The notes under the pieces were generated by a model, which did no database searches, had not been told where the DNA came from, and saw nothing but the letters and a program-made list of their open reading frames with translations. From a virus (taxonomy: Duplodnaviria; Heunggongvirae; Uroviricota; Caudoviricetes), in IMG/VR virus record IMGVR_UViG_2778261179_000011: DNA of 21,526 bases. One strand, 5' to 3'. This document shows positions 491 to 18,698 of the stretch, one piece after another. Each line of letters begins with the position of its first letter. Within the stretch, counting starts at the first letter, position 1. Position numbers and translations under genes: made by a program.

Positions 491-513
491 AATTTAGCTA
501 GTTTAGCTAAATT
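491..513. promoter_or_regulatory. Perfect 10-bp inverted repeat (AATTTAGCTA-gtt-TAGCTAAATT), candidate operator
   Basis: Read directly from sequence. Lies 30 bp upstream of the ATG at 543 and overlaps an AT-rich -10-like TATAAA at 513-518. Confidence 0.35.
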
Positions 514-542: not shown

Positions 543-782
543 ATGAACGAGCAAGAAATTTACGCACAAATCAAAAAAGCTCTGCAAGAGGCACCTCGCA
601 ATCAATACACCGCTGAGCTGCATCTGCAAATGATCAAATATGCTGATGAGCTAAAGAACATCACAGCCAAAGAGTTTTGTGAAGGGGTGGGCCTGCGGAG
701 CAGCTTTGGCACCGAATTTAGCAAAATGCGCAATCTGACTCAGCGCTTGAAAGCTGCCGGGCTCGATACAGCCAAGCTATAA
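543..782 (+). CDS. Small hypothetical protein, 79 aa; possible regulator
   Basis: ATG start, preceded by the inverted repeat at 491-513 and followed 52 bp later by hsdM. No family recognised from sequence. Confidence 0.4.
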   Translation: MNEQEIYAQIKKALQEAPRNQYTAELHLQMIKYADELKNITAKEFCEGVGLRSSFGTEFSKMRNLTQRLKAAGLDTAKL

Positions 783-834: not shown

Positions 835-3255
835 ATGGCCATTAAGAAAACCGAACTTTACTCCTCCCTTTGGGCCAGCTGCGATGAGCTGCGTGGCGGT
901 ATGGATGCCAGCCAGTACAAAGACTATGTGCTGACCATGCTGTTTATGAAGTATGTCTCCGATAAGTACAAAGGCGACCCTTACGGCATGATTGTGGTGC
1001 CGCCAGGTGCCAGCTTTGACGATATGGTTGCCTTGAAAGGCGACAAAGAAATCGGCGATAAAATCAATAAAATCATCAGCGCGCTGGCCGAAGAAAACGA
1101 CCTCAAAGGTGTCATCGACGTTGCCGACTTTAACGATGAAGACAAGCTCGGCAAAGGCAAAGAGATGATCGACCGTCTGTCTAAGCTGATCGGTATCTTT
1201 GAAGGGCTAGACCTATCTGCCAACCGCGCCGATGGCGATGACCTACTGGGTGATGCTTACGAATACCTAATGCGCCACTTTGCTACTGAATCGGGTAAAT
1301 CTAAAGGGCAGTTTTATACCCCAGCCGAAGTCTCGCGGATTATGGCGAAAATCATTGGTATTAATGCGCAAACACCACAAGACGCTACGGTCTACGACCC
1401 CACCTGTGGCTCTGGCTCGCTATTGTTAAAAGCCAGTGATGAAGCGCCGCGCGGCTTGTCGATTTTTGGCCAAGAAATGGATAACGCCACCAGTGCCTTG
1501 GCGCGTATGAACATGATCCTGCACAACAACGCCACCGCCAAAATCTGGAAAGGCAACACCATTGCTGACCCGCAATGGAAAGAGGCAAACGGCCAACTTA
1601 AGACTTTTGATTTCGCCGTGGCCAACCCGCCGTTTTCCAACAAAAACTGGACCAGCGGCATTAACCCGAACGACGACGAATTTGGCCGTTTCAGTTGGGG
1701 CATTCCACCCGAGAAAAACGGCGACTACACCTTTTTACTGCACATCATTAAAAGCCTAAAAAGCACCGGTAAAGGCGCGGTCATTCTGCCTCACGGCGTT
1801 TTGTTCCGTGGCAACGCCGAAGCGCGCATTCGTGAAAACCTGATTAAACAAGGCTACATCAAAGGCATTATCGGTTTGCCGGCCAACCTGTTTTATGGCA
1901 CCGGCATTCCTGCCTGTATTATCGTGATTGATAAAGAGCACGCGAACGCTCGCAGCGGCATCTTTATGGTCGATGCCAGCAAAGGCTTTGCCAAAGACGG
2001 CAATAAAAACCGCCTGCGCAGCCAAGATATTCATAAAATCGTTGATGTCTTTACCAAGCAGCTAGAACTGCCGCGCTACTCGCGTATGGTGCCACTCAGT
2101 GAAATCGCCGGTAACGACTACAACCTCAATATTCCGCGTTATATCGACTCCAGCGAACCGGAAGACCTGCACGATTTAAGCGCCCATCTGCAAGGCGGCA
2201 TTCCAAACCGCGATATTGATGCTTTAGAGCGTTACTGGCAGGTGTTCCCGAGTATTCGCGCCTCCTTGTTTGAGCCTGCCCGTGAAGGTTACAGCAAAGC
2301 CTTGGTCAAAGCCTCCGAGGTGAAAAGCACCATCCTGAACCATGACGAGTTCAAAACCTTCGCCGCACAAAGCTTAATACCCTTTACAGAATGGGCGCAG
2401 CGTTCAAACCTCCACGCCATAGCGCAAGATGAACCGCCAAAACAGATTATTCATCGTATCAGCGAAGACCTGTTACAAAGCTATGCGCAAACGCCACTGC
2501 TGAGTAAATACGATATTTACCAGATCCTGATGGATTACTGGGCGGAGTCAATGCAAGACGATGTGTACGTGCTAGTGCAAGACGGCTGGCCAGCAGGCAA
2601 AGTGCTGCGTGAGTTAGTCGTCAAAAAAGGCGAAAAACTGAAAGAATCGCCCGATTTAGTGATTGGCAAAGCCAAATACAAAGCCGAACTCATTCCTCCG
2701 GCGTTGATCGTCGCGCGCTTTTTTGCCGCCGAACAAGTCAAAGTCGATACGCTGCAATCGCTATTGGATAGCGCCAGCCAAGAGCTTGAAACCTACCTTG
2801 AAGAAAACTCGGGTGAAGACGGTTTACTAAACGATGCGCTGAACGACAAAGACAAAGTCACCAAAGCCACAGTCACGGCACGTTTAAAACTCGCCACCGA
2901 CTCAGATGAAAAAGCCGCGCTAAAACAAGCCAAAAAGCTGTTTGATGCTGAGGGTGATGCCAAAAAAGCCCTAAAAGACGCGCAAGACGCGCTCGATTTA
3001 GCGGTGTTTAAGCAATACCCCCAACTCAGCATCGATGAGATCAAATCCATGATTGTGGACGATAAATGGCTGGCAACACTTGAACGTAATATCGTTGCTG
3101 AAATCGAGCGCGTTACCCAGCAACTGGCCAATCGTGTCAAGGAGCTGGAAGAGCGTTATAGCGAGCCACTGCCTGCTCTTACCCAATCAGTAGAAAACTT
3201 GAGCGATAAAGTCGCAGGTCACTTAAAAGCTATGGGCTTGGAGTGGACGGTATGA
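835..3255 (+). CDS. hsdM: Type I restriction-modification system, N6-adenine DNA methyltransferase subunit HsdM (806 aa, long C-terminal extension)
   Basis: Strong RBS (AAGGAA) before the ATG. Motif I DPTCGSGSLL (about 1396-1425), catalytic motif IV NPPF (1624-1635), GQFYTPAEV motif. Extra C-terminal ~280 aa is K/E/A-rich and coiled-coil-like. Confidence 0.9.
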   Translation: MAIKKTELYSSLWASCDELRGGMDASQYKDYVLTMLFMKYVSDKYKGDPYGMIVVPPGASFDDMVALKGDKEIGDKINKIISALAEENDLKGVIDVADFNDEDKLGKGKEMIDRLSKLIGIFEGLDLSANRADGDDLLGDAYEYLMRHFATESGKSKGQFYTPAEVSRIMAKIIGINAQTPQDATVYDPTCGSGSLLLKASDEAPRGLSIFGQEMDNATSALARMNMILHNNATAKIWKGNTIADPQWKEANGQLKTFDFAVANPPFSNKNWTSGINPNDDEFGRFSWGIPPEKNGDYTFLLHIIKSLKSTGKGAVILPHGVLFRGNAEARIRENLIKQGYIKGIIGLPANLFYGTGIPACIIVIDKEHANARSGIFMVDASKGFAKDGNKNRLRSQDIHKIVDVFTKQLELPRYSRMVPLSEIAGNDYNLNIPRYIDSSEPEDLHDLSAHLQGGIPNRDIDALERYWQVFPSIRASLFEPAREGYSKALVKASEVKSTILNHDEFKTFAAQSLIPFTEWAQRSNLHAIAQDEPPKQIIHRISEDLLQSYAQTPLLSKYDIYQILMDYWAESMQDDVYVLVQDGWPAGKVLRELVVKKGEKLKESPDLVIGKAKYKAELIPPALIVARFFAAEQVKVDTLQSLLDSASQELETYLEENSGEDGLLNDALNDKDKVTKATVTARLKLATDSDEKAALKQAKKLFDAEGDAKKALKDAQDALDLAVFKQYPQLSIDEIKSMIVDDKWLATLERNIVAEIERVTQQLANRVKELEERYSEPLPALTQSVENLSDKVAGHLKAMGLEWTV

Positions 3256-4643
3256 CAAATTTTTCGGGAAAACCTCTTTCTCCAAAAACAGGGAACGCCG
3301 CTTGCGGCAGCCCGCAGGGCGGAGGCAGGGATAGCCGACGTAATGGAGTGGCGGAAGTGAGTTCGACATATCTAGCGGAAATGGCTTCGCCCACAGTTCC
3401 CGTTGGATTTAAGCCAACAGAAGTTGGGGTGATTCCTGAAAATTGGGAAGTAATTCAACTTGGTGATTGCACATCTTATGTTGGATCGGGGAAAACTAAT
3501 ACGAAATCCAGAGGTGAATACCCCCTATATGGCTCGACTGGCTTAATTGGAAGTTGCGAAAGACCTGAATACTCTGGTGAAGCGTTGCTAGTTGCGCGTG
3601 TTGGTGCAAATGCTGGAAGGTTGAATTATGTTTGTGGTGAATATGGTGTTTCGGATAACACAATATTAGTTAAAACTAAGCCAGAACATAGCATTGATTA
3701 CTTAAAATATTGGTTGATACGAAAAAATCTAAACACTCTAGTTTTTGGGTCAGGTCAGCCGCTCATAACAGGAACACAACTTAAAGAATTGGCTCTGCCT
3801 CTCCCATCGAAGACAGAACAAGCCGCCATTGCCAATGCCCTATCCGATGTCGATGCGCTGATCGGCGAGCAGGAAAAACTGATCGCCAAAAAACAGGCCA
3901 TCAAAACCGCCACCATGCAACAACTCCTCACCGGCCGCACCCGCCTGCCGCAGTTCGCCCTGCGTGAAGATGGCACGCCCAAAGGCACCAAGCCAAGTGA
4001 ATTGGGCGAAATACCTGAGGATTGGGAGGTTGTGGAGTTTGGCTGCACATTGAAGGAATTTCGAAATGGGTATGCTTTCTCGGCAAATGGATACTCCTCT
4101 ACTGGAACACCAATCATTACTATGGCTCAAATTGGACTTTCAGGCTCATTTCAGTTTGATATCTCCAAGGTGAATAAATGGGATTCGGAACAACAGGATT
4201 CGCTTAAGGAGTTTTGGGTTCGAGACGGTGATCTCCTAATAGCGATGACTGATGTGACTCCAGATAAAAATCTTATCGGTCAAATGACAATCGCTAAGTT
4301 AGGTGGTATAGCACTTCTAAACCAACGCGTTGGCTTGCTTCGGCTTAAAAATGAAATTGCTTATACGGGATACTTTAGTTTTCTGAGCTGTTTGCCTGTT
4401 TGGAAAACATATTGTAAGGGTGTTGCTTCGTTAGGGGTGCAGGCAAATATCGGTACGTCAGATATCAGAAAAGCAAAGGTGCCGCTCCCATCCATAAAAG
4501 AACAAACCGCCATTGCCTCTATCCTCTCCAATATGGACGCAGAGATTCAGGCGCTGGAACAACGCCTTGGCAAAACCCGCCAAATCAAACAAGGCATGAT
4601 GCAAGAACTGCTCACGGGTAAAACACGGCTGCCAATCACGTAA
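3252..4643 (+). CDS. hsdS: Type I restriction-modification specificity subunit HsdS (two target-recognition domains)
   Basis: ATG at 3252 overlaps the hsdM stop (ATGA). Two TRD starts (VIPENWEVIQLGD; EIPEDWEVVEFG) and two conserved repeats ending LLTG(R/K)TRLP. Start is uncertain: the first ~42 codons are low-complexity and GC-rich, and ATG at 3378 (MASPTVPVGF...) is an alternative. Confidence 0.85.
   Translation: MTNFSGKPLSPKTGNAACGSPQGGGRDSRRNGVAEVSSTYLAEMASPTVPVGFKPTEVGVIPENWEVIQLGDCTSYVGSGKTNTKSRGEYPLYGSTGLIGSCERPEYSGEALLVARVGANAGRLNYVCGEYGVSDNTILVKTKPEHSIDYLKYWLIRKNLNTLVFGSGQPLITGTQLKELALPLPSKTEQAAIANALSDVDALIGEQEKLIAKKQAIKTATMQQLLTGRTRLPQFALREDGTPKGTKPSELGEIPEDWEVVEFGCTLKEFRNGYAFSANGYSSTGTPIITMAQIGLSGSFQFDISKVNKWDSEQQDSLKEFWVRDGDLLIAMTDVTPDKNLIGQMTIAKLGGIALLNQRVGLLRLKNEIAYTGYFSFLSCLPVWKTYCKGVASLGVQANIGTSDIRKAKVPLPSIKEQTAIASILSNMDAEIQALEQRLGKTRQIKQGMMQELLTGKTRLPIT
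3809..3950 (+). repeat. HsdS central conserved repeat (direct repeat copy 1)
   Basis: Encodes TEQAAIANALSDVDALIGEQEKLIAKKQAIKTATMQQLLTGRTRLP; clearly related at the protein and DNA level to copy 2 at about 4494-4634. Confidence 0.7.
4494..4634 (+). repeat. HsdS C-terminal conserved repeat (direct repeat copy 2)
   Basis: Encodes KEQTAIASILSNMDAEIQALEQRLGKTRQIKQGMMQELLTGKTRLP; direct repeat of the 3809-3950 segment, flanking TRD2. Confidence 0.7.
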
Positions 4644-4653
4644 GGACACGAAT

Positions 4654-6072
4654 ATGTCACCAGACACCTCCACACATAGGCTGCATGAGCAAGTTAAATC
4701 GGTTTATCAGCTCCTGAGCGAGCCACAGCTGCATATTCCTAACTACCAGCGCCCATACAAATGGACAGCAGACAACCTCCAAGCGCTACTCACCGATTTA
4801 CGCAACTACCGCGATAAATCGGCGTATCGCTTGGGTACGGTGGTGTTTCATCACAACTCAGAGCATTTGGATATTGTTGATGGCCAACAACGCACCCTAA
4901 CCTTAATGCTACTGGTTAAAGCCATTGCTGAACACATGCAGGAGCATAAAGACTTAATCCAGCGCAAAGACTTAAGCGAGCAAATAGCCGAACTGGTTAC
5001 CAATATTGATGCTTTTTTAAGCACACAACCCGACAGCCCCCACAGCGGCATCACCCATACCAACCTTTATCAAAACTACCAAGCGGCTAAGCGGGCAGTG
5101 GCACAGCCTGAGTTTGGCGAAGCAGATATTGCGTTTTTACTGCATAAATGCCAAGTCGTCACCTTTGTGTTGAATGATATTTCTGAGGCGTTTCAGTTTT
5201 TTGACTCACAAAACAGCCGTGGCCGCGACTTAAACCCGCACGACTTACTCAAGGCCTATCATTTACGCGAGTTTCCCGAGCATGAAGCGGCACTCAAAGC
5301 CGAAGCCGTTAAAGACTGGGAAAGCCAAAAAAGCCACGAACTAGCCAGGGTATTTGCCCACTACCTGTATCGCATTCGCCACTGGGTTAATAACCAGCAG
5401 GCCCACTACTTTAGCAAAGACGATATTGGGCTATTTAAGGGCGTGAATCTGTATCAGGCAGCCCATTATCCTTACACCCAAGCGCTGCGCATTCAGCACG
5501 AGCAGGTGGATAACTACAATAATCACTTTCAGCGCAAGCTAGACCAAAACACGCTGGCGTTTCCGTTTCAGCTCGATCAAATCGTAATTAATGGGCGGCG
5601 CTTTTTTGAAATGATTGCGCACTACCAAGCGCTGATTAACAGCCTAACCGGCGAGGCATTAACCAAACAGTCCAGCATTCCTTTATCAGACCGTGCACAG
5701 CAGATTCTTAACGCGCTCAATAGCTATGGGGCACGGCATCGAACGGGCGATCGTTATATCCGCATGCTGTTTGACTGTGCGCTGCTGTATTACTTCGATA
5801 AATTTGGCAAAGAGCAACTATCAGAAGCGATCGAAAAGTTTTTCATCTGGGCCTATAGCTGCCGCTTAACCAGCCACGCTGTGTATATCGAAACCATGGA
5901 TAACCACGCCCGCAACAGCAAACTGTTTAAATTAATCCAGTCCGCCATTAGCCCAAAACAAGTACTGGCGCTGCCTTTAAAAACCCTCACCCCCGCTGAT
6001 CTCAAGGCAAGTAAGATGGGCGATTTGGTTAAGCTATTCGAAGGAATGAAATACTATGTCGAATCCAAATAA
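4654..6072 (+). CDS. DUF262 (ParB/Srx-like nuclease fold) protein, 472 aa, GmrS-like; no recognisable HNH C-terminus
   Basis: RBS AAGGA 8 nt upstream. N-terminal ...IPNYQRPYKW... and DGQQR motif (4879-4893), both hallmarks of DUF262. Starts 10 bp after the hsdS stop. Confidence 0.75.
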   Translation: MSPDTSTHRLHEQVKSVYQLLSEPQLHIPNYQRPYKWTADNLQALLTDLRNYRDKSAYRLGTVVFHHNSEHLDIVDGQQRTLTLMLLVKAIAEHMQEHKDLIQRKDLSEQIAELVTNIDAFLSTQPDSPHSGITHTNLYQNYQAAKRAVAQPEFGEADIAFLLHKCQVVTFVLNDISEAFQFFDSQNSRGRDLNPHDLLKAYHLREFPEHEAALKAEAVKDWESQKSHELARVFAHYLYRIRHWVNNQQAHYFSKDDIGLFKGVNLYQAAHYPYTQALRIQHEQVDNYNNHFQRKLDQNTLAFPFQLDQIVINGRRFFEMIAHYQALINSLTGEALTKQSSIPLSDRAQQILNALNSYGARHRTGDRYIRMLFDCALLYYFDKFGKEQLSEAIEKFFIWAYSCRLTSHAVYIETMDNHARNSKLFKLIQSAISPKQVLALPLKTLTPADLKASKMGDLVKLFEGMKYYVESK

Positions 6073-8086
6073 GATAACGAGCTTTTCCATTAGGCAGCTG
6101 TTAGCAGATCACGCCTCCTATCAGATCCCTATGTATCAGCGTAACTATGCGTGGGAAAAAGGCGAAATTGATCAGCTGATTCAGGATGTTGTTGATTATC
6201 AAGTCCAAAAAAAGCCTTACTACATCGGCAGCTTAGTGGTGTATCCACGGGATAATCAGCTATTTGAAGTGATTGACGGCCAGCAACGCTTTACCACGCT
6301 CACGCTAATTGCTTTATGTTTGAAGCACTTCAGCATGTTGGCTGAAAAAGAAGGGACAACGTCTGTTAATAAAGTTGACATGAGTTGGTATCAAACGCCT
6401 AATTTATGCTTTGAAAGCCGCGCTAACTCAACCCTCACCCTTGAAAAAATAACAGCCTTTAGCGCCTCTACTGCTAAGCATTTGTCACTAGATCCAGCCG
6501 ATATTAATCAGTGCAACAGCGCTATTTTAAATGGCTTTAACTTGGTGCAGCAGGCGTTATCTGAGCTTGCTAAACAGCATGACCTACATCAGTTTTGTGA
6601 GTACTTATTTGATTGGGTAAAAATCACCCGCGTCCCCGTTCCCCACGACACTGATTTAACCCATTACTTTGAGGCGATGAATAATCGCGGGGAACAGCTA
6701 GAAAAACACGAAGTGCTAAAAGCCAGAATGCTCTCTGTGCTGCAAGATGCCAGCCACCAACACCCTGAGAATAAAAGCGCGCAGGAAGTGCTCAATAAAG
6801 TGTGGAATGCCTGCGCCAATATGGAGCGTTATGTGCAGTTTGGCTTTAACCCCATCGAGCGCCAGCAGATCTTTGGCAATGAGTGGCAAAAATTTACCGC
6901 TAACAGCTTTACTGAGCTTCATCACGCGCTAATAGCCCCTGAAAACAGAGCAGCCAACACCACAGTCGACACTCATAGTGATGAGCCAGCCGCCAAATCA
7001 CTGGCTGAAATGTTGAACACACCTTATACCGATAAACAGGCAGAAACAGATAAAAATCAACCATCGCCTGAACGCTTTAACAGCGTGATTAATTTTTCTA
7101 ACTTTTTATTGCAGGTCTTAAGGGTTTACAGCCAAAAAGACATTTCTTTGGACGATAAGCAGTTAATTGATCAGTTCGAAACGCATATTTTGCACGCAGA
7201 CGAGGCAGCAGAAAAAGTTAAAGCGTTTGTGTTTGCCTTATTAAAATCCAAATACCTATTTGATCACTACGTGATAAAACGCGATGCGACGGCTCAGGAC
7301 AAGTGGGGCATCAAGCAATTAAAACGCTATGAGCGCAATAGCCAAAGCTACGTCAATACCTTTGCCCAAAACGATCAGCCTGATACCACTCACTCGCAAT
7401 TAAATCAGCGCATTGTTTTATTACTAAGCGCCTTTCATGTCTCTACGCCCACCATGAACTACAAGCACTGGTTAACCGGCGTTTTGCATATCCTGCATCA
7501 ACTGCACGCCAAGCAACTCGATGCAGACAACTATTTAAAGGCACTCGAAAAGCTCGCCAGAAGCTTTATCTATGGGCGTTATTTGGCTAAAACAGCGGCT
7601 GATTATTACACACTGATTTTTGATAACCCGAAGGACTATCAACCCTTAGCGGACACGTGTTTTTTACGGTGTCGCTTGCGCTATGGTTCGATTAAAAACA
7701 ACTTTGTATTTAACTATTTAGATTATTTGCTGTGGTGCACCACCCAAGATAAGGACCTGGTGTATCGTGAGTTTGAATTTAGTTTTAGAAGCTCGGTCGA
7801 GCATTTCTACCCACAAGATCCCTACTCTGGCGAACCATTAGAGGATGGGCCTTTGCATAGTTTTGGTAACCTATGCCTAATTAGCCACAGCAAAAACTCT
7901 AAGCTCAGCAACTACCAACCCACGGCTAAAAAAGAGCACTTTCAAGCAGCCAGCACCCAAGGCAAAATCGACTCACTCAAGCTGTATGAAATGACTCGGG
8001 TTAAAGTATGGGATGCAGATGCTATCCACAAGCATGAAACCCAAATGCTGGGATTGTTTATTAAGGATTCTGAGGGAGAAAAATGA
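6056..8086 (+). CDS. DUF262 + DUF1524 (His-Me finger/HNH-like) protein, 676 aa; GmrSD-like putative modification-dependent (Type IV-like) restriction endonuclease
   Basis: N-terminal ...IPMYQRNYAW... with DGQQR (6275-6289). C-terminal SVEHFYPQ...GNLCLISHSKNSKLSN (about 7793-7915), typical of the DUF1524 nuclease module. Overlaps the previous gene by 17 bp and hsdR by 4 bp. Confidence 0.75.
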   Translation: MSNPNKITSFSIRQLLADHASYQIPMYQRNYAWEKGEIDQLIQDVVDYQVQKKPYYIGSLVVYPRDNQLFEVIDGQQRFTTLTLIALCLKHFSMLAEKEGTTSVNKVDMSWYQTPNLCFESRANSTLTLEKITAFSASTAKHLSLDPADINQCNSAILNGFNLVQQALSELAKQHDLHQFCEYLFDWVKITRVPVPHDTDLTHYFEAMNNRGEQLEKHEVLKARMLSVLQDASHQHPENKSAQEVLNKVWNACANMERYVQFGFNPIERQQIFGNEWQKFTANSFTELHHALIAPENRAANTTVDTHSDEPAAKSLAEMLNTPYTDKQAETDKNQPSPERFNSVINFSNFLLQVLRVYSQKDISLDDKQLIDQFETHILHADEAAEKVKAFVFALLKSKYLFDHYVIKRDATAQDKWGIKQLKRYERNSQSYVNTFAQNDQPDTTHSQLNQRIVLLLSAFHVSTPTMNYKHWLTGVLHILHQLHAKQLDADNYLKALEKLARSFIYGRYLAKTAADYYTLIFDNPKDYQPLADTCFLRCRLRYGSIKNNFVFNYLDYLLWCTTQDKDLVYREFEFSFRSSVEHFYPQDPYSGEPLEDGPLHSFGNLCLISHSKNSKLSNYQPTAKKEHFQAASTQGKIDSLKLYEMTRVKVWDADAIHKHETQMLGLFIKDSEGEK

Positions 8087-11000
8087 GTAACGTCGGCCAG
8101 CGTGAACGCATGACCCAACAGCGCATTGTTGAGCTGTTTCAAACGGATTTAGGCTACCGCTATTTAGGTAACTGGGAATACCGCGATAACAATAAAAACA
8201 TAGAAGTTGAGCTACTAACGAGCTGGCTGAAAAAGCGCGGCATAAGCGAGGCGCTGATTAATCGCGTGATTCGTCAGCTAGACAGCGCAGCGGCGCTGGG
8301 CGAAGGTAAAAAGCTCTATTACGCCAACAAAGAGGTTTATCGCCTGCTGCGTTACGGCGTGAAAGATAAAGAAGGTGCTGGCCATCTTAATGAAACCGTG
8401 TGGCTGATTGACTGGAAAAATCCAGAAGCAAACGATTTTGCCATTGCCGAAGAAGTCTCTATCAAGGGTGAAAACAAAAAATGCCCAGACATAGTGCTGT
8501 ATGTCAATGGTATCGCTCTAGGTGTGATTGAGCTGAAACGCTCTTCGGTGTCTGTCTCTGAGGGTATTCGCCAGAACCTCGATAACCAAAAGAAAGATTT
8601 TATCCGTAACTTCTTCACCACCATGCAATTGGTGATGGCGGGTAACGACACGCAAGGCTTGCGTTACGGCACGATTGAAACCCCGGAGAAGTATTATCTT
8701 GAATGGAAAGAAGAGATAGAGAACGGGTATAGCCATAAGCTCGACTTTCACCTGAGCCGCGTATGCAATAAAGCGCGTTTTTTACAGATCATCCACGATT
8801 TTATTGTTTTCGATGCGGGTATTAAAAAGACCTGTCGTCACAATCAGTTCTTTGGTATTGAAGCGGCAAAACGCCATATCGCAAGGCGTGAAGGCGGCAT
8901 TATTTGGCATACGCAAGGTTCTGGCAAAAGCCTCACTATGGTGTGGTTGGCCAAATGGATACGTGAAAATGTCAAAGACGCCCGTGTATTGATCGTGACC
9001 GATCGTACCGAGCTGGATGAGCAGATAGAAAAAGTATTCACCGGTGTTGAGGAAGATATTTATCGCACCAAAAGCGGTGCCGATTTGGTGGCGACGCTCA
9101 ATCAGCCCAACCCTTGGTTGGTATGCTCTTTAGTCCATAAATTTGGTCGGCAGTCTGATTCGGAAAACGATACCGCGACGGATGAGTTTATTGCCGAGTT
9201 AAAGAAATCCCTACCATCGGACTTTAAAGCCAAAGGCGACCTATTCGTATTTGTTGATGAATGCCACCGTACTCAATCGGGCAAGTTGCACGAAGCGATG
9301 AAGTCCATTCTGCCAGAAGCCATGTTTGTCGGCTTCACCGGCACCCCCTTGATGAAGAAAGACAAGAAAAAATCGGTTGAGGTATTTGGCCCTTACATTC
9401 ACACCTATAAGTTTGATGAAGCTGTGGCCGATGGCGTTGTGCTCGATTTACGCTACGAAGCACGAGACATCGACCAAAATGTCACGTCGCAGAAAAAGGT
9501 CGATGAATGGTTTGAAGCCAAAACTCGCGGCTTATCTCGATTAGCGAAAACCCAGTTGAAACAGAAATGGGGCACCATGCAAAAGGTGCTGTCCAGTAAA
9601 TCGCGTTTGCAGCAGATTGTGAATGATATCTTGCTGGATATGGACACTAAGCCACGCCTGATGGATGGCTACGGCAATGCCATGTTGGTCTGCTCTAGTG
9701 TCTATCAAGCTTGTAAAGCTTATGAAATGTTCAGCCAAACAGATTTAGCCGGCAAGGTGGCTATTGTCACCAGTTTTCAGCCGACCGCTGCGAGCATTAA
9801 AGGGGAAGAAACCGGTGAAGGCTTAACGGAAAAGCTCTTTAAGTACGATATTTACCGCAAAATGCTTGCGGATTACTTCGAGCAACCGGAAGACAAGGCC
9901 GCTAACCGAGTTGAAGAGTTTGAAAAAGAAGTTAAAAAACAATTTATTGATGAGCCAGGGCAAATGCGCTTGCTCATCGTGGTCGATAAGTTGCTGACTG
10001 GCTTCGACGCCCCTTCGGCTACCTATTTGTATATCGACAAACAGATGGCTGATCACAATCTGTTTCAGGCCATTTGCCGCGTGAACCGCTTGGATGGCGA
10101 TGATAAAGAATACGGTTACATCATTGACTACAAAGATCTGTTCCGCTCGTTGGATAAAGCGATTTCTGATTATACTCAAGGCGCATTTGATGGTTATGAC
10201 AAGGAAGACGTTGCAGGGCTGCTGAAAGATCGTTTAGAGCAAGCCAAGCTCGATTTGGATAATGCGCTGGAAATGGTGCGCGCCTTGTGTGAGCCGGTAA
10301 AAGCGCCACGCAACACGGAAGACTACATTTATTATTTTTGTGGTAAGTCAGGTCTGAACCAAGACGAGCTCACCGAGAAAGAAGCACTGCGTTTAACGCT
10401 TTATCAGAACGTTGCCAAACTGCTGCGTGCGTTCGCCAATATCGCCAATGAAATGCCTGATGCAGGCTATTCTGCGCAAGATGTAGACTCGATAAGAACA
10501 GAAGTGGCTCATTTTGAAAAAGTCCGTGACGAAGTAAAACTGGCCAGTGGCGATTTGGTAGAAATGAAACGCTTTGAGCCTGCGATGCGCCATTTGTTAG
10601 ATATGTATATTCGTGCGGATGACAGCGAAGTACTGATGGATTTTGAAGAGCTGGGGCTTATTGAGCTCATTGTCGAAAAAGGCGCTGATGCCGTGGAGGC
10701 TTTGCCTGATAGTATTCGCAAGAATCAGGAAGCCATGGCCGAAACCATCGAAAATAACGTGCGTAAAACCATCGTTGATGAAAACCCGGTTAACCCCAAG
10801 TATTACGAGCAAATGTCGGTGTTATTGGATGAGCTGATTGAGCTTCGTCGCCAAAAAGCGATTGAATATCAAGAGTATTTGGAAAAAATCCGCGAGCTGT
10901 CTCGTAAGGTTATACGTCCGGAGCAGACAGCGGCTAACTATCCGCCATCGATGGACTCTAATCCAAAACGCGCGTTTTACGATAATTTTGGTCAAGATGA

Positions 11001-11175
11001 ATTGCTGGCTACCAAAATAGATAGTGCCATTCGTTATACCAAAAAAGCGGATTGGGTCGGAGATCGCTTTAAGGAGCGAGAAATTGCCAATGCGGTGCGA
11101 GAAGAAACGACGGGGTATGAGGTGGATATTCAGGGTGTAATGGAATTGGCAAAAGCGCAAAAAGAGTACCATTGA
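8083..11175 (+). CDS. hsdR: Type I restriction enzyme endonuclease/translocase subunit HsdR (1030 aa)
   Basis: N-terminal PD-(D/E)xK nuclease motif (PDIVLYVNGIALGVIELK). SF2 helicase motifs: Walker A HTQGSGKSLT (about 8911-8940), motif II FVDECHR (about 9253-9273), motif III FTGTP. ATGA overlap with the upstream gene. Confidence 0.9.
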   Translation: MSNVGQRERMTQQRIVELFQTDLGYRYLGNWEYRDNNKNIEVELLTSWLKKRGISEALINRVIRQLDSAAALGEGKKLYYANKEVYRLLRYGVKDKEGAGHLNETVWLIDWKNPEANDFAIAEEVSIKGENKKCPDIVLYVNGIALGVIELKRSSVSVSEGIRQNLDNQKKDFIRNFFTTMQLVMAGNDTQGLRYGTIETPEKYYLEWKEEIENGYSHKLDFHLSRVCNKARFLQIIHDFIVFDAGIKKTCRHNQFFGIEAAKRHIARREGGIIWHTQGSGKSLTMVWLAKWIRENVKDARVLIVTDRTELDEQIEKVFTGVEEDIYRTKSGADLVATLNQPNPWLVCSLVHKFGRQSDSENDTATDEFIAELKKSLPSDFKAKGDLFVFVDECHRTQSGKLHEAMKSILPEAMFVGFTGTPLMKKDKKKSVEVFGPYIHTYKFDEAVADGVVLDLRYEARDIDQNVTSQKKVDEWFEAKTRGLSRLAKTQLKQKWGTMQKVLSSKSRLQQIVNDILLDMDTKPRLMDGYGNAMLVCSSVYQACKAYEMFSQTDLAGKVAIVTSFQPTAASIKGEETGEGLTEKLFKYDIYRKMLADYFEQPEDKAANRVEEFEKEVKKQFIDEPGQMRLLIVVDKLLTGFDAPSATYLYIDKQMADHNLFQAICRVNRLDGDDKEYGYIIDYKDLFRSLDKAISDYTQGAFDGYDKEDVAGLLKDRLEQAKLDLDNALEMVRALCEPVKAPRNTEDYIYYFCGKSGLNQDELTEKEALRLTLYQNVAKLLRAFANIANEMPDAGYSAQDVDSIRTEVAHFEKVRDEVKLASGDLVEMKRFEPAMRHLLDMYIRADDSEVLMDFEELGLIELIVEKGADAVEALPDSIRKNQEAMAETIENNVRKTIVDENPVNPKYYEQMSVLLDELIELRRQKAIEYQEYLEKIRELSRKVIRPEQTAANYPPSMDSNPKRAFYDNFGQDELLATKIDSAIRYTKKADWVGDRFKEREIANAVREETTGYEVDIQGVMELAKAQKEYH

Positions 11176-11888
11176 TGCCTAAGGTAGAAATTGGTTCTAT
11201 TGCGATGCAGTTAAATCGTAAGGCAATTAAAAACCTTCATATCAGCGTGTTGCCACCTGATGGGCGTGTGCGTGTTTCTGCTCCTGAATCTATGACAGAA
11301 ACCGCAATCCGTATGGCAGTGATCAGCCGCATTCCTTGGATCAAGAAACAGCAGAGTGTTTTTGCCAAACAACCTCGCCAATCTGATCGAGCAATGGTTA
11401 GCGGTGAATGTCATTACCTGTGGGGCAGGCGTTATCGTCTGAATCTTATCGAGCGTTCCGGAAAGCATGAAATCAAGCTAGGTCGTGGTCGATTGCATTT
11501 ATATGTCAATCCCGCAACAACGCTTGAGAACAAGGCACTGGTACTGAACTCATATTATCGAGATGCACTTAAAACGCGAATCGCTGAGTTATTGCCTGTT
11601 TGGGAAGATAAGATCGGCGTTAAAGCTGTAGATTGGGGAATTAAAAAGATGAAAACCAAGTGGGGCAGCTGCAATATTCAGGCAAAGCGCATTTGGCTAA
11701 ATTTAGAGCTTGCTAAAAAGCCACCGGAGTGTTTGGAGTACATCCTAGTGCATGAATTGGTGCACTTGCTTGAGCGTAATCACAATGAACGCTTCAAGGG
11801 GTATATGGACAAGCTACTTCCCGATTGGCGAGAGCGCAGAGATTTGTTGAATCGGATGCCCTTGGCGCACAACGATTGGGTGTACTAG
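11175..11888 (+). CDS. M48-family / YgjP-like (DUF45) zinc-dependent hydrolase, ~237 aa
   Basis: HExxH zinc-binding motif HELVHLLE (11751-11774) preceded by WGSC. ATG at 11175 overlaps the hsdR stop (TGATG); the track ORF starts 3 nt earlier at TTG 11172. This family is commonly found directly downstream of hsdR. Confidence 0.75.
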   Translation: MPKVEIGSIAMQLNRKAIKNLHISVLPPDGRVRVSAPESMTETAIRMAVISRIPWIKKQQSVFAKQPRQSDRAMVSGECHYLWGRRYRLNLIERSGKHEIKLGRGRLHLYVNPATTLENKALVLNSYYRDALKTRIAELLPVWEDKIGVKAVDWGIKKMKTKWGSCNIQAKRIWLNLELAKKPPECLEYILVHELVHLLERNHNERFKGYMDKLLPDWRERRDLLNRMPLAHNDWVY

Positions 11889-12284
11889 GAAAATTATGCA
11901 GAGTTTGCATGGTTAGCCTGATTATGTATGTGGCGCGTAATTTGAGATAAACTTGATAGTAAAAGCGGGAAATGGATTTCATTTCTCCGATATTTTGCTC
12001 AGGTGCTGTCGCTAAAAGTGTCAAGATTCTATCTTTACGCTTGGCGGCCAATACTCCCGCAGTACCTACCCAGAAAATAGCCAATATTGGGATCAACTTA
12101 ACAGTTTTGGCTTTGTTTATTATAAAAACCAGCACTTTCAATTAGTTGAATGGTTTATTCGCTAGTTTATGTGAACTACCGTTCTAACGAATAGAACACC
12201 CCGAGATATTGCTTTCGCTGGTGGGAAAACATTCCTAACCAACCTGAAGGCGCAATACATCAGTTTTTAAGCAGAGAAAAGACT

Positions 12285-13108: not shown

Positions 13109-13426
13109 TCAATATACGATCTGGTCTACATGATCCCCAAAATCATCGTCGTCATCGTCGTCGTCCTCATCGCCACCCTCTACTGCTGGCCAATCAACAA
13201 ACCAGCCAGCGTAAAGATGCAGCGTTCGGAGAACATCACTTGCGGGAGCATCAAGGGTGTTAACGAATCCCATATAGCTATTGGGATTTGCCCCAGCTAT
13301 GGCTTCAGCGATCATGTCCTCGGTAATGTCACCGGAGATAATGCTTAAACGCCCGGAAACTTCTTCATTATCATCAAATTCGATAATGGCATCTCCGCCT
13401 AATGGCGCTGCGATTTTAATCTGCAT
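13109..13426 (-). CDS. Highly acidic small protein, 105 aa, with a D8 tract (DEDDDDDDDDFGD); last gene of the dar-like operon
   Basis: About 26 Asp/Glu against about 3 Lys/Arg. Poly-Asp encoded by a (GAY)n run at 13142-13171. Overlaps the upstream 995-aa gene by 11 bp. Confidence 0.5.
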   Translation of the reverse strand: MQIKIAAPLGGDAIIEFDDNEEVSGRLSIISGDITEDMIAEAIAGANPNSYMGFVNTLDAPASDVLRTLHLYAGWFVDWPAVEGGDEDDDDDDDDFGDHVDQIVY

Positions 13427-16403
13427 TATTTAGCTCCTTTGCCACACCTAATAACAGTTCCAGCAATCCGTCACCATTCATCAGTGATGCGGCAGCGGCC
13501 TCTTTGTCATGATACAACTGAAGAGCCATAGAGAATACTTCCGTTGCTGACGTTTTGGAAATAGTCGGGGATTTCTGCCGAATTTTCCCAGTGTTACTTA
13601 CTGAGGCTGGCGGGTATACCTTCGCCATATAAATATTACTCAATCGAGATCTGAAGCACCATTCAGGCTTGCCACGCCCACCGATATTAACGAAAGATGG
13701 CTTATCCCCTTCAACATTGGCCTTCAGGAATGACCGGGCTTTCTCTAACAAACCAGGGTTACTGTACTCAAGATGATGACCCAGCTCGTGCCACAGTGCA
13801 CTTGCATTTTCATCGTTCAAATTGACAGCAACAACACCATTAAGATTTGCATATGCCCTTCCCTGGTGGTGAACCACCTTTGATAAGGTCGAAATTTTAC
13901 CGCCGGTCAGGCGATAAATATCAGCAAGTTCCTTGCGCAGGTCTATCCCACCATTCTGTCCAGCGCGGGCTTCTTCCACTTCTTCCGTGATAAAAGAGTC
14001 GGCCCACTCAAGAGCTTTTTCTTCAGATACGGATGAGTTGGCGATCGCACTGTTCATGGCAGATAACACTTTCTCGTGGACCGAACCCATACTTCGCTGA
14101 TTCATTTGCCAGCGTGTCTGCGGGTTATATGAGAATCGCTTAAGTAGTTGGTCAAGCTGCTCAAGTTCTTCTTCACTGACATACTTTTTAGCCTCACCAA
14201 TAATGCCAGGGAGAATATTGCCGTTAGGATTAAACGCTCGCGAAAGGAAGAGTTTCAGCGCCCCCATGCCCTCCGATGCTTCAATATCACCAATAACCCG
14301 GTTAACAATGGCCGCACTCTTCGGATTAGCATCCGCCAACGCTCTGGCTACGATTTGCAGGGACGATACGACCTCACGCTGCATATCAGTCCTGATCTCA
14401 TCAATAAACTCTGGCGTTATGCCGTGCTCTTTAAGGATATCCCTGCCTTCCGCCGTTACCCCATCGATATCACCGACATGTTTATTAACCTGACTTTGCA
14501 ATGCCTTAAATGCCTTCAGAATTCCACGGGCATCATCAGCTTTACTAACGGCCTTCCTGAATACTGGCAAGAAGTCAGAGTTAACCTCATTTTGTTGATC
14601 GGCCCACTGAATGGAGGCTTCTTTCATCTCGTCCAGAGTCAGATCACCCAACGCGGTATGGTCTGTGAATATGAGCGACAACCTCTGAACCATTTCTGCC
14701 AATGGTGATGCCGAATGCGCCGCGCTAAGGAATGCTTTCACCCTGGTTGGGCGAATGGAAAACCAGTCAATAGCTGGTGGCATATCTCCGTTTTTTATCG
14801 CCTGCGCTATCTCATCAAAGCCGTCGCGCCCAAGGGAGGATGCGTGATTTAACAATCCGCGAAGTAACGAATTGCTGATACCGAATAATCGGCACCATTT
14901 TTTTACGTCGGCAACAGGCATTCGGACAAAATGCGCAAGCACTTGTACAAGCTGCTCATCCTGGGGATCGGTGCGGGATAGCAGCCTGATCAGATGAATA
15001 ATGTCTTTGATTCCGGATGCCCGATGTAATAGCAAGCTGGTATATGGAGCAACACCGTTGTAACTACCGCCGGAAGCTGACTCGAAAAGACCGCCGGATA
15101 TCCCTTGCATACCTTCGTTTTCCAGTTCCTGAGATACCTGGCGAAGGATATCCTGTAACGACACATCACCGCCGCCAAACATATCCCCGAGCGCCTGGCC
15201 CTGGTGCTGTAACTCATCATTGATACGTTGTGCCATCAACTTAAAGGCGGTGGCCATACGCTTCGCGCTACGGTTATTCGCGACGATAAACAACGCGAGT
15301 GCTTTCACTTCCGGGGCCGTTTCGCTGAACATATCCCCCTGAGCAATAACATCGGTAATATGTTGGCCTGACTCCTTCGATTGCCTTACCAGGTCTACCG
15401 CATCTTTCAATGCAGCCAGCGCCTTTTTATCGAGGCTATCCGCTGTTTCAATGCTATCAACGATAGTTGTCACAGCCTGCTTGTGCGCTTCTCCTGATAA
15501 AGCCTGCATCTGGACAAAATCATTGGCCGCCGCATTAAGCGCCGTCAGAACATTACGCATATCCGGATCAGGTTCTTCTGCAACCATCCTTACCAAGCGC
15601 GCATCCTTATATGCCTTGGCAAAGATCGCGTTTTGTATCCGGTCAACAAGTTGCCGTGTTGGTCGCCCATCTTCAGTTACAAGTCCAGCCGCCTGTGTGG
15701 CACCAACTTGCGTCATAAATCCGCGAATAAACGCGTCATTACTGCGGCTAAGCAGATCTCCGCTTTCTGACGGGTTAAAAAGCGCCATCATCGCCGGTGT
15801 TATGCTGTCGGCATCAACAAAAGCCTTTTCACTGGCTGCCATTTCCTGAAGATCAGAAATATTTGAGTCTTTGGCAAACTGAACGCGGTCAACCTTAGTT
15901 AACCGGCGGCGCACCAGTACCGGAGCCGTCATTGATTCAACCTTTTCAGGACGTATGCCGAATTCGCTCGCATGTTCAATCAGGTACTCCCGATACCGAT
16001 CCGCATTGCCGTCCTGATAGGCTTTAATGATCCCCATGGTTCGTCCATTACCTGACTCAACGGCATTGTCCTCACCAATTATCGGCGCTCCATGGCTGGA
16101 TAAACCGGAGTCGGTAAGCTGAGCAGGCCGCAAATCCTTGGATATCTGGTTAACCTGAAGAATACTGGATGCGCGGGTCCGGTCGCGCGGCTGAAGTTCC
16201 TGGGGATAGTCCGGATTAATTTTCCCGTCCAGAGTATTGGATACCAAAAGAGCTGAGGCATCGACGATATCAAACGCTGTTTTTACCTCGTCTCCCTTCG
16301 CTGTCACCACATACGAAACCCGCCCATAATCGGGCAGGTTCTTTAGCAGCTCGATCAGCGTTTCTATGCTGGTGGCCATTACCACCTGATCGCTTAAGCT
16401 CAT
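13416..16403 (-). CDS. ddrB: DdrB-like large protein, 995 aa, with an HExxH zincin motif near the C-terminus
   Basis: ATG start. HELGHH encoded at 13773-13790 (verified by reverse-complementing the DNA). Size and position after the ddrA-like and darA-like genes match the P1 darA operon as I recall it. Confidence 0.6.
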   Translation of the reverse strand: MSLSDQVVMATSIETLIELLKNLPDYGRVSYVVTAKGDEVKTAFDIVDASALLVSNTLDGKINPDYPQELQPRDRTRASSILQVNQISKDLRPAQLTDSGLSSHGAPIIGEDNAVESGNGRTMGIIKAYQDGNADRYREYLIEHASEFGIRPEKVESMTAPVLVRRRLTKVDRVQFAKDSNISDLQEMAASEKAFVDADSITPAMMALFNPSESGDLLSRSNDAFIRGFMTQVGATQAAGLVTEDGRPTRQLVDRIQNAIFAKAYKDARLVRMVAEEPDPDMRNVLTALNAAANDFVQMQALSGEAHKQAVTTIVDSIETADSLDKKALAALKDAVDLVRQSKESGQHITDVIAQGDMFSETAPEVKALALFIVANNRSAKRMATAFKLMAQRINDELQHQGQALGDMFGGGDVSLQDILRQVSQELENEGMQGISGGLFESASGGSYNGVAPYTSLLLHRASGIKDIIHLIRLLSRTDPQDEQLVQVLAHFVRMPVADVKKWCRLFGISNSLLRGLLNHASSLGRDGFDEIAQAIKNGDMPPAIDWFSIRPTRVKAFLSAAHSASPLAEMVQRLSLIFTDHTALGDLTLDEMKEASIQWADQQNEVNSDFLPVFRKAVSKADDARGILKAFKALQSQVNKHVGDIDGVTAEGRDILKEHGITPEFIDEIRTDMQREVVSSLQIVARALADANPKSAAIVNRVIGDIEASEGMGALKLFLSRAFNPNGNILPGIIGEAKKYVSEEELEQLDQLLKRFSYNPQTRWQMNQRSMGSVHEKVLSAMNSAIANSSVSEEKALEWADSFITEEVEEARAGQNGGIDLRKELADIYRLTGGKISTLSKVVHHQGRAYANLNGVVAVNLNDENASALWHELGHHLEYSNPGLLEKARSFLKANVEGDKPSFVNIGGRGKPEWCFRSRLSNIYMAKVYPPASVSNTGKIRQKSPTISKTSATEVFSMALQLYHDKEAAAASLMNGDGLLELLLGVAKELNNAD

Positions 16404-16415
16404 CCCTGTTACGCC

Positions 16416-16781
16416 TTATGCTGCCTCTTTAATGTTGGCGGCTATCCATGCCGCCGTGTGCTGTTTAACCTGGTCCAGGTCGATGTATGTGCCAACATAT
16501 TGACTCAAGTCCTGCAAGGTACCGATAAATGCATCTGTGCTCTGATCGACGAATTTATCAGCCAGGAAATCAGCAACCAGTTTTGGCACACCATCATGTT
16601 CCGAAGGTTGTTTTTCATCGCCACTACCACCGCCGGACGCGCCGTACCCCATCTGTTGCATGATCTGGTCAATTTCATCGCTGATATCCAGCAACTCCAT
16701 GCCACTCGCGGTGGCCGCTTTGGACATCAGAGCATCCAACTTATCGCTGAGATCCATTAACTCAATAGCTGATAGTGTCAT
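16416..16781 (-). CDS. ddrA: DdrA-like small acidic protein, 121 aa
   Basis: ATG overlaps the stop of the upstream 639-aa gene (ATGA). Called by size and operon position only. Confidence 0.5.
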   Translation of the reverse strand: MTLSAIELMDLSDKLDALMSKAATASGMELLDISDEIDQIMQQMGYGASGGGSGDEKQPSEHDGVPKLVADFLADKFVDQSTDAFIGTLQDLSQYVGTYIDLDQVKQHTAAWIAANIKEAA

Positions 16782-18697: not shown

Positions 18698-18698
18698 G

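Follow-up and report, generated by a model that had tools for sequence, protein, structure and literature searches.

Introduction

For Type I enzymes, the founding restriction systems, self-protection is to our knowledge known in detail only in the EcoKI type, where it runs via host ClpXP; for the other Type I families we know either of assembly control or of no explanation at all. Few unexplained features of Type I operons are as common as a protease-fold gene joined to hsdR. Makarova et al. are said to have noted a link of COG1451 to Type I systems in their 2011 work on defence islands.

The closest described system is the EPEC RRDM island, which has the order RptR-HsdM-HsdS-DarTG2-HsdR-M48 and for which the binding site of RptR was defined experimentally (PMC12255303). 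Zhang et al., who described it (Nucleic Acids Res 2025), name the terminal "M48" gene and report no test of it. The pairing of hsdR with this protease gene is thus already noted in print, and it is conserved from bacteria to archaea. A literature search on metalloproteases of the YgjP/COG1451/DUF45/PF01863 type together with hsdR found this one paper naming the gene and no functional test, and the gene is absent from reviews of Type I and host-dependent restriction-modification (R-M) systems from 2013 (PMC3874165) and 2025 (PMC12707154). This agrees with the first-pass annotation of the DNA studied here, which had called the role of the family beside hsdR not established.

Proteolytic control of HsdR as such has precedents, with ClpXP acting for Types IA and IB and another mechanism for Type IC (PMC12707154; PMC4231737), and with Lon-like proteases acting on HsdR in P. 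aeruginosa. The role of ClpXP on EcoKI and EcoAI, and of the Lon-like proteases, is the one that we propose below, namely removal of HsdR against self-restriction. However, these are general ATP-dependent host proteases encoded elsewhere, whereas the protein described here is a small zincin of the ATP-independent type encoded inside the R-M operon. PrrC in EcoprrI is likewise the product of an extra gene in a Type I operon and is functionally tied to the enzyme, but it is an anticodon nuclease encoded between the hsd genes, as the cargo is here, whereas our protease gene is a constant terminal gene. The anti-restriction protein ArdC of plasmid R388 also has a zincin fold, a nucleic-acid-binding N-terminal domain and a functional connection to HsdRMS.

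Organisation of the island

The window, a 21,526-nt stretch of a Caudoviricetes virus record (IMG/VR IMGVR_UViG_2778261179_000011), contains an island with the order rptR-hsdM-hsdS-(GmrSD-like pair)-hsdR-protease, carried by a P1-like phage-plasmid (Table 1). We found every element of an RRDM-type island on one strand, that is, rptR with TAGCTA operators, hsdM, hsdS, cargo, hsdR and a terminal M48-like gene. The operon plan and the gene position after hsdR are alike in the window and in EPEC, as is the regulator, given the RptR homologue and the two TAGCTA sites of the window, and the window protease is 70% identical to the "M48" orthologue of the RRDM-type island in E. coli 1303. The two differ in their hsdS-hsdR cargo, which is DarTG2 in EPEC and a GmrSD-like pair in the window, and in their setting, a chromosomal IS-flanked island in the one case and a P1-like phage-plasmid in the other. 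Judged by its sequence, the window island represents the RRDM island with another cargo.

The best solved relative of the window HsdR is EcoR124I HsdR, at an E value of only 5e-35. An intergenic scan of the island found no internal promoter and one weak terminator. The P1 backbone picks up again at about 12180, a boundary taken from match limits, and the island adjoins P1's own anti-Type-I dar operon within the window.

Table 1. Features of the island, in window coordinates.
Feature	Position	Strand	Remarks
RptR operator repeats	493..510	+	two TTTAGCTA(G/A) repeats with TAGCTA, the palindrome of RptR, at 495 and 504; 34-50 nt upstream of rptR
rptR homologue	543..782	+	HTH_73, 79 aa; opens the island
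hsdM	835..3255	+	806 aa; C-terminal extension of about 360 aa without a Pfam domain
hsdS	3243..4643	+	
Cargo	4654..8086	+	two overlapping genes, GmrSD_N+DUF7834 (4654-6072) and GmrSD_N+GmrSD_C (6056-8086)
hsdR	8083..11175	+	1030 aa; HSDR_N + SWI2_SNF2 + T1R_D3-like; constant upstream partner
AAAGAG, Shine-Dalgarno-like run	11161..11166	+	within the hsdR 3' end, 8 nt before the ATG; read from sequence
TGATG junction	11173..11177	+	hsdR stop and protease start with one common base; translational coupling; sequence
Protease gene, YgjP-like (PF01863) zinc metallopeptidase fold	11175..11888	+	237 codons + TAG; last gene of the island
N-terminal basic domain	11175..11519	+	residues 1 to about 115; strand-rich, two helices; pI 10.96
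Long helix and minimal zincin catalytic domain	11520..11885	+	residues about 116-237
HELVHLLERNH	11751..11783	+	HExxHx5H metal-binding/catalytic motif (H193, E194, H197, H203)
Terminator-like hairpin, weak	11967..11987	+	3' of the protease gene; 1 site found against 1.5 expected by chance

The protease gene and its junction with hsdR

The first-pass annotation had described a protein of about 237 aa whose start overlaps the hsdR stop, and both the length and the overlap were borne out. The A that ends the hsdR TGA (11173-11175) also begins the protease ATG (11175-11177), giving a 1-nt overlap, and the gene follows hsdR directly in the same orientation, the placement of an HsdR-coupled accessory gene. 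Translational coupling to HsdR in turn restricts the protein to the times and places of HsdR synthesis. The AAAGAG run ahead of the junction is a putative Shine-Dalgarno-like element of the protease gene. The ATG is the start annotated in RefSeq for a plasmid copy of the gene (protein 99.6% identical), and it matches the N-termini of 19 homologues. Among five unsaturated pairs, dN/dS lay between 0.07 and 0.27, values that indicate purifying selection on the gene.

Family, fold and active site

In a profile search, the 237-aa protein matched Pfam PF01863 (YgjP-like) with an E value of 8.7e-62 and 209.2 bits (cut-off 26), and the match spanned residues 25-227 of the protein and positions 5-206 of the 207 in the model; a full-length match with this score can be taken as far beyond chance. 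The first-pass annotation had proposed such a search, for DUF45/M48, and had named the lack of a zinc-hydrolase fold on structure prediction as grounds for abandoning its reading of a YgjP-like zincin. That reading stands, since the AlphaFold model (pLDDT 95), built from a diverse alignment of 141 sequences, contains a zincin domain. This model superseded one from just 20 close homologues, which was unusable at pLDDT 46.

The catalytic domain consists of a three-stranded sheet, the active-site helix and then further helices, so that HExxH on the active-site helix, a third ligand and the sheet-plus-helices catalytic fold of a zincin are all found. The HELVHLLE motif pointed out earlier was confirmed within HELVHLLERNH (residues 193-203). 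Across 141 diverse homologues, conservation was 0.99 for H193, 1.00 for E194, 0.99 for H197 and 0.99 for H203, compared with only 0.84 for E200, and the His of the projannalysin NH motif is the counterpart of H203 in the alignment. Because the metal-binding and catalytic residues are conserved at 0.99-1.00 and dN/dS is low, the enzyme is predicted to be active.

All six of the best structural neighbours of the model are peptidases, the nearest being the minigluzincins (proabylysin 4jiu, projannalysin 4jix, selecase 4qhf) and the next Spartan and Wss1. The minigluzincins, of about 105 aa, are archaeal and stand alone, whereas the window protein is tied to hsdR and bears a further basic domain of about 115-130 aa at its N terminus. 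To Wss1 and Spartan, of DNA-protein crosslink repair, and to other SprT-like and WLM proteins (PF10263, PF08325), its sequence similarity is marginal; unlike them it has no ubiquitin, SUMO or PCNA module, and its added domain is a different one. This very basic N-terminal domain has no solved relative. Across 81 orthologues the median pI was 9.9 and the net charge about +15, and the N-terminal domain (pI 10.96) contrasts with HsdR at pI 5.4.

The protein falls outside M48 (Ste24, HtpX, Oma1, BepA), which is defined by a Peptidase_M48 (PF01435) match and a membrane-embedded or envelope location, and outside Peptidase_M78 (CapP, ImmA, IrrE), whose members match the M78 profile and always come paired with the gene of a cognate repressor. 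NCBIfam, PADLOC and PHROGs include no model for it. With the PF01863 namesake, YgjP of E. coli K-12, it has the C-terminal HExxH core in common, but that protein has 167 aa, covers Pfam positions 146-200 only, is 26% identical over 80 of the 237 residues and has housekeeping neighbours (rlmG, ygjQ) with no R-M link. We therefore rejected a transfer of function by orthology with E. coli YgjP (b3085), on the grounds of length, partial alignment and neighbourhood.

Linkage to hsdR across genomes

The earlier claim that the family recurs beside Type I hsdR genes was borne out. Among 80 related loci from Proteobacteria, Cyanobacteria, Chloroflexi, Bacillota and Methanoculleus (50-100% identity), an hsdR orthologue ends directly upstream of the protease gene in 78, and 59 of these 78 show an overlap of the two genes, of 1 nt (n = 32), 4 nt (n = 9), 11 nt (n = 10) or 14 nt (n = 8). 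Linkage is still present at 38% identity. Among ten distant plasmid homologues (23-36% identity), nine lie beside hsdR of other HsdR subfamilies, eight of them immediately 3' on the same strand and one, in Bacillus, adjacent but convergent; the hsdR-linked plasmids include those of the haloarchaea Haloferax and Natronosalvus, and of Deinococcus and Synechocystis. In E. coli, 280 of the 281 records with any match to the junction probe contain both the hsdR and the protease halves.

The gap between hsdS and hsdR, by comparison, varies in its cargo across the family, with lengths from 3 bp to 5.9 kb and many different defence genes, and RptR was found in only 8 of 34 loci, which rules it out as a general conserved partner or substrate. 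That linkage is independent of cargo and of RptR and is kept with hsdR points, at the level of gene order, to HsdR as the conserved partner of the protease gene. Taken together, we consider it nearly certain that this is a conserved accessory gene of widespread Type I operons of the form hsdM-hsdS-(variable cargo)-hsdR-protease, encoding a soluble, strongly basic protein that has a minimal zincin domain with an intact HExxHx5H motif and is translationally coupled to HsdR.

A few loci (L052, L056 and L064) have an intact protease gene beside hsdR remnants only. In a further locus, L018, HsdR is 92% identical and the protease only 66% identical, so that tight pairwise co-adaptation is not evident. 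A search with a concatenated query for natural HsdR-protease fusions returned two singletons (P0314 and P0317), which we dismissed as artefacts because hsdM and hsdR are frameshift-broken in both source assemblies. The HsdR termini are the least conserved parts of that protein (column identity 0.56-0.67), and no clear docking motif was found in the conservation of its C terminus, where the penultimate Tyr is invariant. Some YgjP-like family members apparently carry a fused M78/IrrE-like domain together with an HTH.

A proposed role in the control of HsdR

We propose that the product is a DNA-associated metalloprotease that acts on HsdR, or on the Type I complex engaged on DNA, as a self-encoded control of restriction, a reading to which we assign a probability of roughly 0.38, the highest of those weighed here. 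The gene, its fold, the conserved active site, the basic charge, the coupling and the phyletic linkage to hsdR are observed; protease activity, DNA binding, HsdR as substrate and the physiological role are inferred from them. The conserved basic charge would be in keeping with association with DNA. The protease would cut HsdR, or the complex while engaged on DNA, where motors translocate or stall on DNA of the cell itself that is unmodified or half repaired, and also where motors are still locked on DNA after cutting. The outcome would be restriction alleviation or turnover that is self-encoded and independent of the host, in effect the job that ClpXP performs on EcoKI, but with a mode of action like that of Wss1 and Spartan, which are DNA-dependent proteases. 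Such a role would fit single-operon systems on phage-plasmids, plasmids and islands that enter naive hosts, archaea included. The EcoKI locus, which relies on ClpXP, lacks a YgjP-like gene, and its hsdR is separately controlled.

Several observations are counterpoints to cleavage of HsdR: the nearest solved relative of the window HsdR is of Type IC, and alleviation in Type IC has been explained through assembly control without proteolysis (PMC12707154). The intact protease genes beside hsdR remnants, the L018 pairing with its lack of evident tight co-adaptation, and the lack of genuine HsdR-protease fusions are further counterpoints, and the high pI of the protease may be a sign of binding to acidic HsdR instead of to DNA.

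If control or recycling of HsdR is indeed the role, the establishment of single-operon Type I systems in naive hosts after transfer, including in archaea, would be explained. The protease would also extend the textbook R2M2S enzyme by a fourth component and provide a bacterial model of DNA-dependent proteolysis. More tentatively, the protein might be a one-client prokaryotic counterpart of Wss1 and Spartan, a DNA-activated zincin that cuts the engaged or stuck Type I motor and a true fourth subunit; Type I systems of a very large class, bacterial as well as archaeal, would then have alleviation or turnover built in, with no need of the host.

Alternative explanations

The first-pass annotation had also raised a separate effector. 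As a latent guard resembling PrrC, the protease would be kept inactive by HsdR or the complex until an anti-restriction protein frees it to cut an essential host or phage protein, leading to abortive infection. Type I operons do house such effectors, PrrC among them (PMC3874165), the minigluzincins, as nearest structural relatives, were crystallised as zymogens according to their structure entry titles, and a sequestered effector would suit 1:1 coupling to HsdR. We nevertheless regard this as unlikely, as effector-like cargo occupies the variable hsdS-hsdR slot whereas the protease is constant and follows hsdR, an intact protease beside hsdR remnants would be unexpected for a toxin without its keeper, and PADLOC has no model for it. 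Somewhat less likely again is a maturation or assembly factor needed for restriction, which would trim HsdR or aid its loading onto the M2S core; nuclease activity would then arise only after processing. The strict linkage, the translational coupling and the conserved active site would all suit such a factor, but no conserved cleavable extension is evident in HsdR, whose termini are its least conserved parts, and Type I enzymes of families without a YgjP-like gene, such as that of the EcoKI locus, function unprocessed.

There is a slim chance that the protease defends the enzyme by degrading anti-restriction proteins aimed at it, such as DNA mimics of the Ocr/ArdA type or Dar-type capsid proteins. 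Attraction of a very basic protein to highly acidic DNA mimics is plausible, the position beside the protected subunit fits, and the adjoining dar operon of P1 makes the arms race local; but known DNA-mimic inhibitors bind the M2S core rather than HsdR, and near-universal presence across phyla, archaea included, favours in-system housekeeping over a reply to particular inhibitors. A hydrolase that is not a protease, acting with a metal on nucleotides or on nucleic acid, as the zincin-like RNase YbeY does, seems very improbable. E. coli YgjP is reportedly (UniProt entry) a UTP pyrophosphatase, but it is a short outlier with low partial identity and an unrelated context, and the HExxH with its invariant Glu and the six peptidase neighbours speak against this reading. 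We place just as little weight on a signal-activated derepressor that, as CapP does on CapH or as ImmA/IrrE do, would cleave RptR on infection and so turn the island on. Proteolysis is one of the options that the RRDM paper names for the removal of RptR on infection, a step it leaves unexplained (PMC12255303); rptR and its operator are present in the window, and the family members with apparent M78/IrrE-like and HTH fusions would be in keeping with such a mechanism.

Abundance of the family

A phage origin or an anti-restriction use was rejected, as only 13 of 50,697 phage records match, mostly weakly, and BFVD has no match at E <= 0.001. With a threshold of E <= 1e-30 the homologue search returned about 1,160 sequence clusters, a figure that rose to about 21,800 with E <= 1e-3, and the protease gene is present in about 5% of complete E. 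coli genomes.

Gene layout and family assignment

The island genes form a plus-strand run, closely packed or overlapping, with domains assigned by Pfam and PADLOC profile matches (table below). The first-pass annotation had placed a zinc hydrolase of about 237 aa at 11175-11888, with a HELVHLLE motif and a start overlapping the hsdR stop, and every one of these details agrees with the window sequence. The RefSeq annotation of a plasmid copy, whose protein is 99.6% identical, uses this frame and start too. Its label "M48/YgjP-like" stood in its second half only. The product, a putative protease referred to below as the protease, matches the YgjP-like family PF01863 over nearly the whole model (209 bits, E = 8.7e-62) and has a marginal match to the SprT-like Pfam profile. 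It is a genuine member of PF01863 and does not fall within M48 as MEROPS defines that family. E. coli YgjP is not its orthologue either: the K-12 namesake, an outlier of 167 aa in a housekeeping gene neighbourhood, is 26% identical over just 80 residues and matches Pfam positions 146-200 only.

Features of the island and of the P1 genes 3′ of it
Feature	Position	Strand	Remarks
Two TTTAGCTA repeats	493-510		34-50 nt 5′ of rptR; TAGCTA palindrome at 495 and 504
HTH_73 gene (rptR)	543-782	+	79 aa; RptR homologue; first island gene; profile match
hsdM	835-3255	+	profile match
hsdS	3243-4643	+	profile match
GmrSD_N+DUF7834 gene	4654-6072	+	profile match
GmrSD_N+GmrSD_C gene	6056-8086	+	profile match; overlaps preceding GmrSD-like gene
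hsdR	8083-11175	+	profile match
hsdR stop (TGA)	11173-11175	+	TGATG junction
protease ATG	11175-11177	+	TGATG junction
protease gene	11175-11888	+	237 aa; PF01863; HELVHLLERNH at residues 193-203
ddrB, ddrA, darA, hdf, lydB, lydA	13416-20057	-	P1 genes
cin		-	P1 gene

The segment is part of a P1-like (IncY) E. coli phage-plasmid. The P1 backbone picks up at about 12180, so the protease gene is the last of the inserted island. Since the island directly adjoins the P1 dar operon, which includes DdrA-like (ddrA) and Hdf-like (hdf) anti-restriction proteins, followed by lydB and lydA, the phage-plasmid has a Type I system next to genes that shield P1 DNA from Type I restriction. An 18.6-kb contig labelled "uncultured Collinsella sp." (CALJDJ010000001.1) encodes island proteins 100% identical to those of the window; it probably derives from an Enterobacterales phage-plasmid and was binned wrongly.

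The gene plan is that of the EPEC island RptR-HsdM-HsdS-DarTG2-HsdR-M48 (RRDM), of which RptR is the repressor, acting at a promoter with three such TAGCTA-bearing repeats; its terminal gene was named "M48-family metallopeptidase" and co-occurs in the neighbourhood plots (Zhang et al., 2025; PMC12255303). By sequence, the protease is an orthologue-level relative of that gene. Because the plan is shared and the protease of the RRDM-type island in E. coli 1303 is 70% identical to ours, we regard the window as a cargo variant of this island type, with a GmrSD-like pair where RRDM has DarTG2.

Three further features of the Type I genes were observed. The methylase domains of HsdM (806 aa) stop near residue 443; the remaining ~360 residues match no Pfam domain. 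This C-terminal extension is conserved in this Type I family, and PADLOC MTase_I matches over the full length. The mechanically called hsdS ORF begins with GTG, and neither the Methylase_S nor the PADLOC match takes in its first ~45-60 residues (3243-3380); translation may really begin at an internal Met near residue 47. The penultimate HsdR residue, Tyr1029 (11170-11172), is invariant among 66 orthologues, although nowhere is HsdR less conserved than in the rest of its C-terminal tail; this Tyr may be a docking residue, or the ribosome-binding site and protease start that overlap here may constrain it.

Linkage to hsdR

When genomes were scanned at one per species, at least 596 relatives of the protease were recovered, and the best 80 (50-100% identity) were examined; these span Gamma-, Beta- and Zetaproteobacteria, Cyanobacteria, Chloroflexi, Bacillota, Omnitrophota, Fibrobacterota and one Methanoculleus. 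The recurrence of the family beside Type I hsdR, noted at first pass, proved general: an orthologue of the window HsdR ends just 5′ of the protease gene, on the same strand, in 78 of these 80 loci, and nine of ten plasmid homologues at 23-36% identity are linked to hsdR genes of other HsdR subfamilies (hosts Klebsiella, Vibrio, Acetobacter, Phyllobacterium, Deinococcus, Synechocystis, Haloferax and Natronosalvus). One of the two exceptions has too short an upstream sequence, and the other (L058) is a truncated copy adjoining unrelated genes; the tenth plasmid homologue is a short 178-aa form from Lachnospira, amid housekeeping genes. In one of the nine linked plasmid homologues, from Bacillus, the two genes are adjacent but convergent. 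The linkage also holds for a 38%-identical relative. Upstream HsdR best-segment identity was mostly 57-100%, and 43-48% at loci keeping only a 3′ hsdR fragment. The hsdR stop and protease start overlap in 59 of the 78 loci, by 1 nt (32 loci), 4 nt (9), 11 nt (10) or 14 nt (8); judged by this overlap, the protease is co-translated with HsdR.

At five further loci the protease gene is intact although hsdR is interrupted or survives as no more than a 3′ remnant. At three with intact protease genes (L052, L056, L064) the remnant comprises 60-170 codons and follows a truncated hsdM, Fic and YhcG cargo, or an unrelated surface protein gene. Among complete E. coli genomes, 275 of 5,426 have the hsdR-3′/protease junction, with both halves in 280 of 281 junction-matching records. 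The gene is absent from the EcoKI locus and rare in phages (13 of 50,697 phage records).

The gap between hsdS and hsdR is a cargo hot spot of this Type I family (window 4654-8086; loci L003-L081). Across 63 loci it measures 3 bp to 5.9 kb and holds GmrSD-like, Schlafen/AlbA_2, AbiEii-like ATPase, DarT with Macro domain (DarTG), Zeta toxin, Fic or OLD/UvrD-pair genes, and the protease stays fixed to hsdR whatever the cargo. The two window cargo genes also gave partial PADLOC HEC-06/Orf5/SspE hits. A distantly related Type I operon on K. pneumoniae pKP121-2 (L084 7535-11021) has a DUF262 gene pair 3′ of the protease gene, unlike the cargo placed between hsdS and hsdR; the conjugative plasmids of Klebsiella that bear this operon are widespread, with Klebsiella accounting for 355 of 567 matching plasmid records.

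Selection, fold and active site

Against five relatives unsaturated at synonymous sites, the protease gave dN/dS of 0.07-0.27. Structure prediction from close homologues alone reached pLDDT 46, and an alignment of 141 diverse sequences, 131 of them from a search of a 50%-clustered library, yielded a confident model (pLDDT 95.2) with the zincin fold expected of a zinc hydrolase. Structural neighbours aligned over ~100 residues each, a length close to that of the C-terminal catalytic domain, and sequence-level matches fell at residues 146-221. The N-terminal domain (~115-130 residues), modelled with eight strands and two helices that lead into a long helix, has no counterpart among solved structures.

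Since H193, E194, H197 and H203 are conserved at 0.99-1.00 across these 141 sequences and E200 at just 0.84, the metal site is likely HExxHx5H; H203 aligns with the NH-motif His of projannalysin. A sequence scan found no hydrophobic segment. The protease has a pI of 9.98 (N-terminal domain 10.96; HsdR 5.4), and 81 orthologues have a median pI of 9.9 and a median charge of +15. Cys166 (11670-11672), in the motif MKTKWGSC, is 0.96 conserved across the alignment. Because a cysteine switch is reported for Wss1, Cys166 could by analogy be regulatory rather than structural.

Proposed function

The protease is a conserved, selected, soluble and basic zincin-fold protein with an intact catalytic motif, linked to HsdR across bacteria and archaea regardless of regulator and cargo. 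From the fold, motif, co-translation and this linkage, we infer that the protease acts in connection with HsdR itself. The specific reading with most support, to which we give a probability of roughly 0.4, is that it would proteolyse HsdR or DNA-engaged Type I complexes, limiting self-restriction on entry into an unmodified host or following DNA damage, or alternatively clearing Type I complexes still locked on DNA. HsdR proteolysis is an established alleviation route (ClpXP for Types IA and IB, Lon-like proteases in P. aeruginosa), which favours this reading, as does the extra, highly basic domain. Further support comes from the nearest characterised structural relatives after minimal archaeal zincins, the DNA-dependent proteases Spartan and Wss1, and from the organisation of these systems as single operons on mobile elements, archaea included. 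Haloarchaea and methanogens are not known to have ClpXP. Counting against HsdR proteolysis are the lack of genuine HsdR-protease fusions in a search with a concatenated query, the few intact protease copies beside hsdR remnants, and one locus (L018) where HsdR and protease identities to the window are discordant.

Among other roles, a PrrC-like guard effector appears unlikely, an HsdR maturation factor slightly more so, and a degrader of anti-restriction proteins is less probable again. A non-peptidase hydrolase would be a long shot. We set equally low a derepressor acting on RptR, for the RptR-bearing clade only: RptR removal upon infection was left unexplained in EPEC, with the CapH/CapP precedent cited (PMC12255303). 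Of 34 loci whose upstream sequence is complete, RptR is detectable in just 8, all of them from close relatives within the Gammaproteobacteria, which excludes it as a general partner of the protease.

Databases and one paper already record the gene, how it is annotated and that it is linked to hsdR, and its mere presence will not surprise specialists. The present analysis adds how widely and how tightly the two genes are linked, excludes RptR and cargo as partners, and contributes a confident predicted fold and the conserved basic N-terminal domain. A protease both HsdR-directed and DNA-dependent, which we hold only tentatively, would if demonstrated notably extend what is known of Type I systems.

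Spartan and Wss1 are grouped with minigluzincins in published work (PMC4559962). Apparent fusions of the HsdR C-terminus to the protease (L096 7001-9073; L097 7001-8728) come from metagenome assemblies with hsdM and hsdR split into several ORFs, and are most likely frameshift errors. Two homologues, P0185 (628 aa) and P0207 (854 aa), seem to carry a fused Peptidase_M78 (IrrE/ImmA-like) domain, one also with a Cro/C1 HTH.
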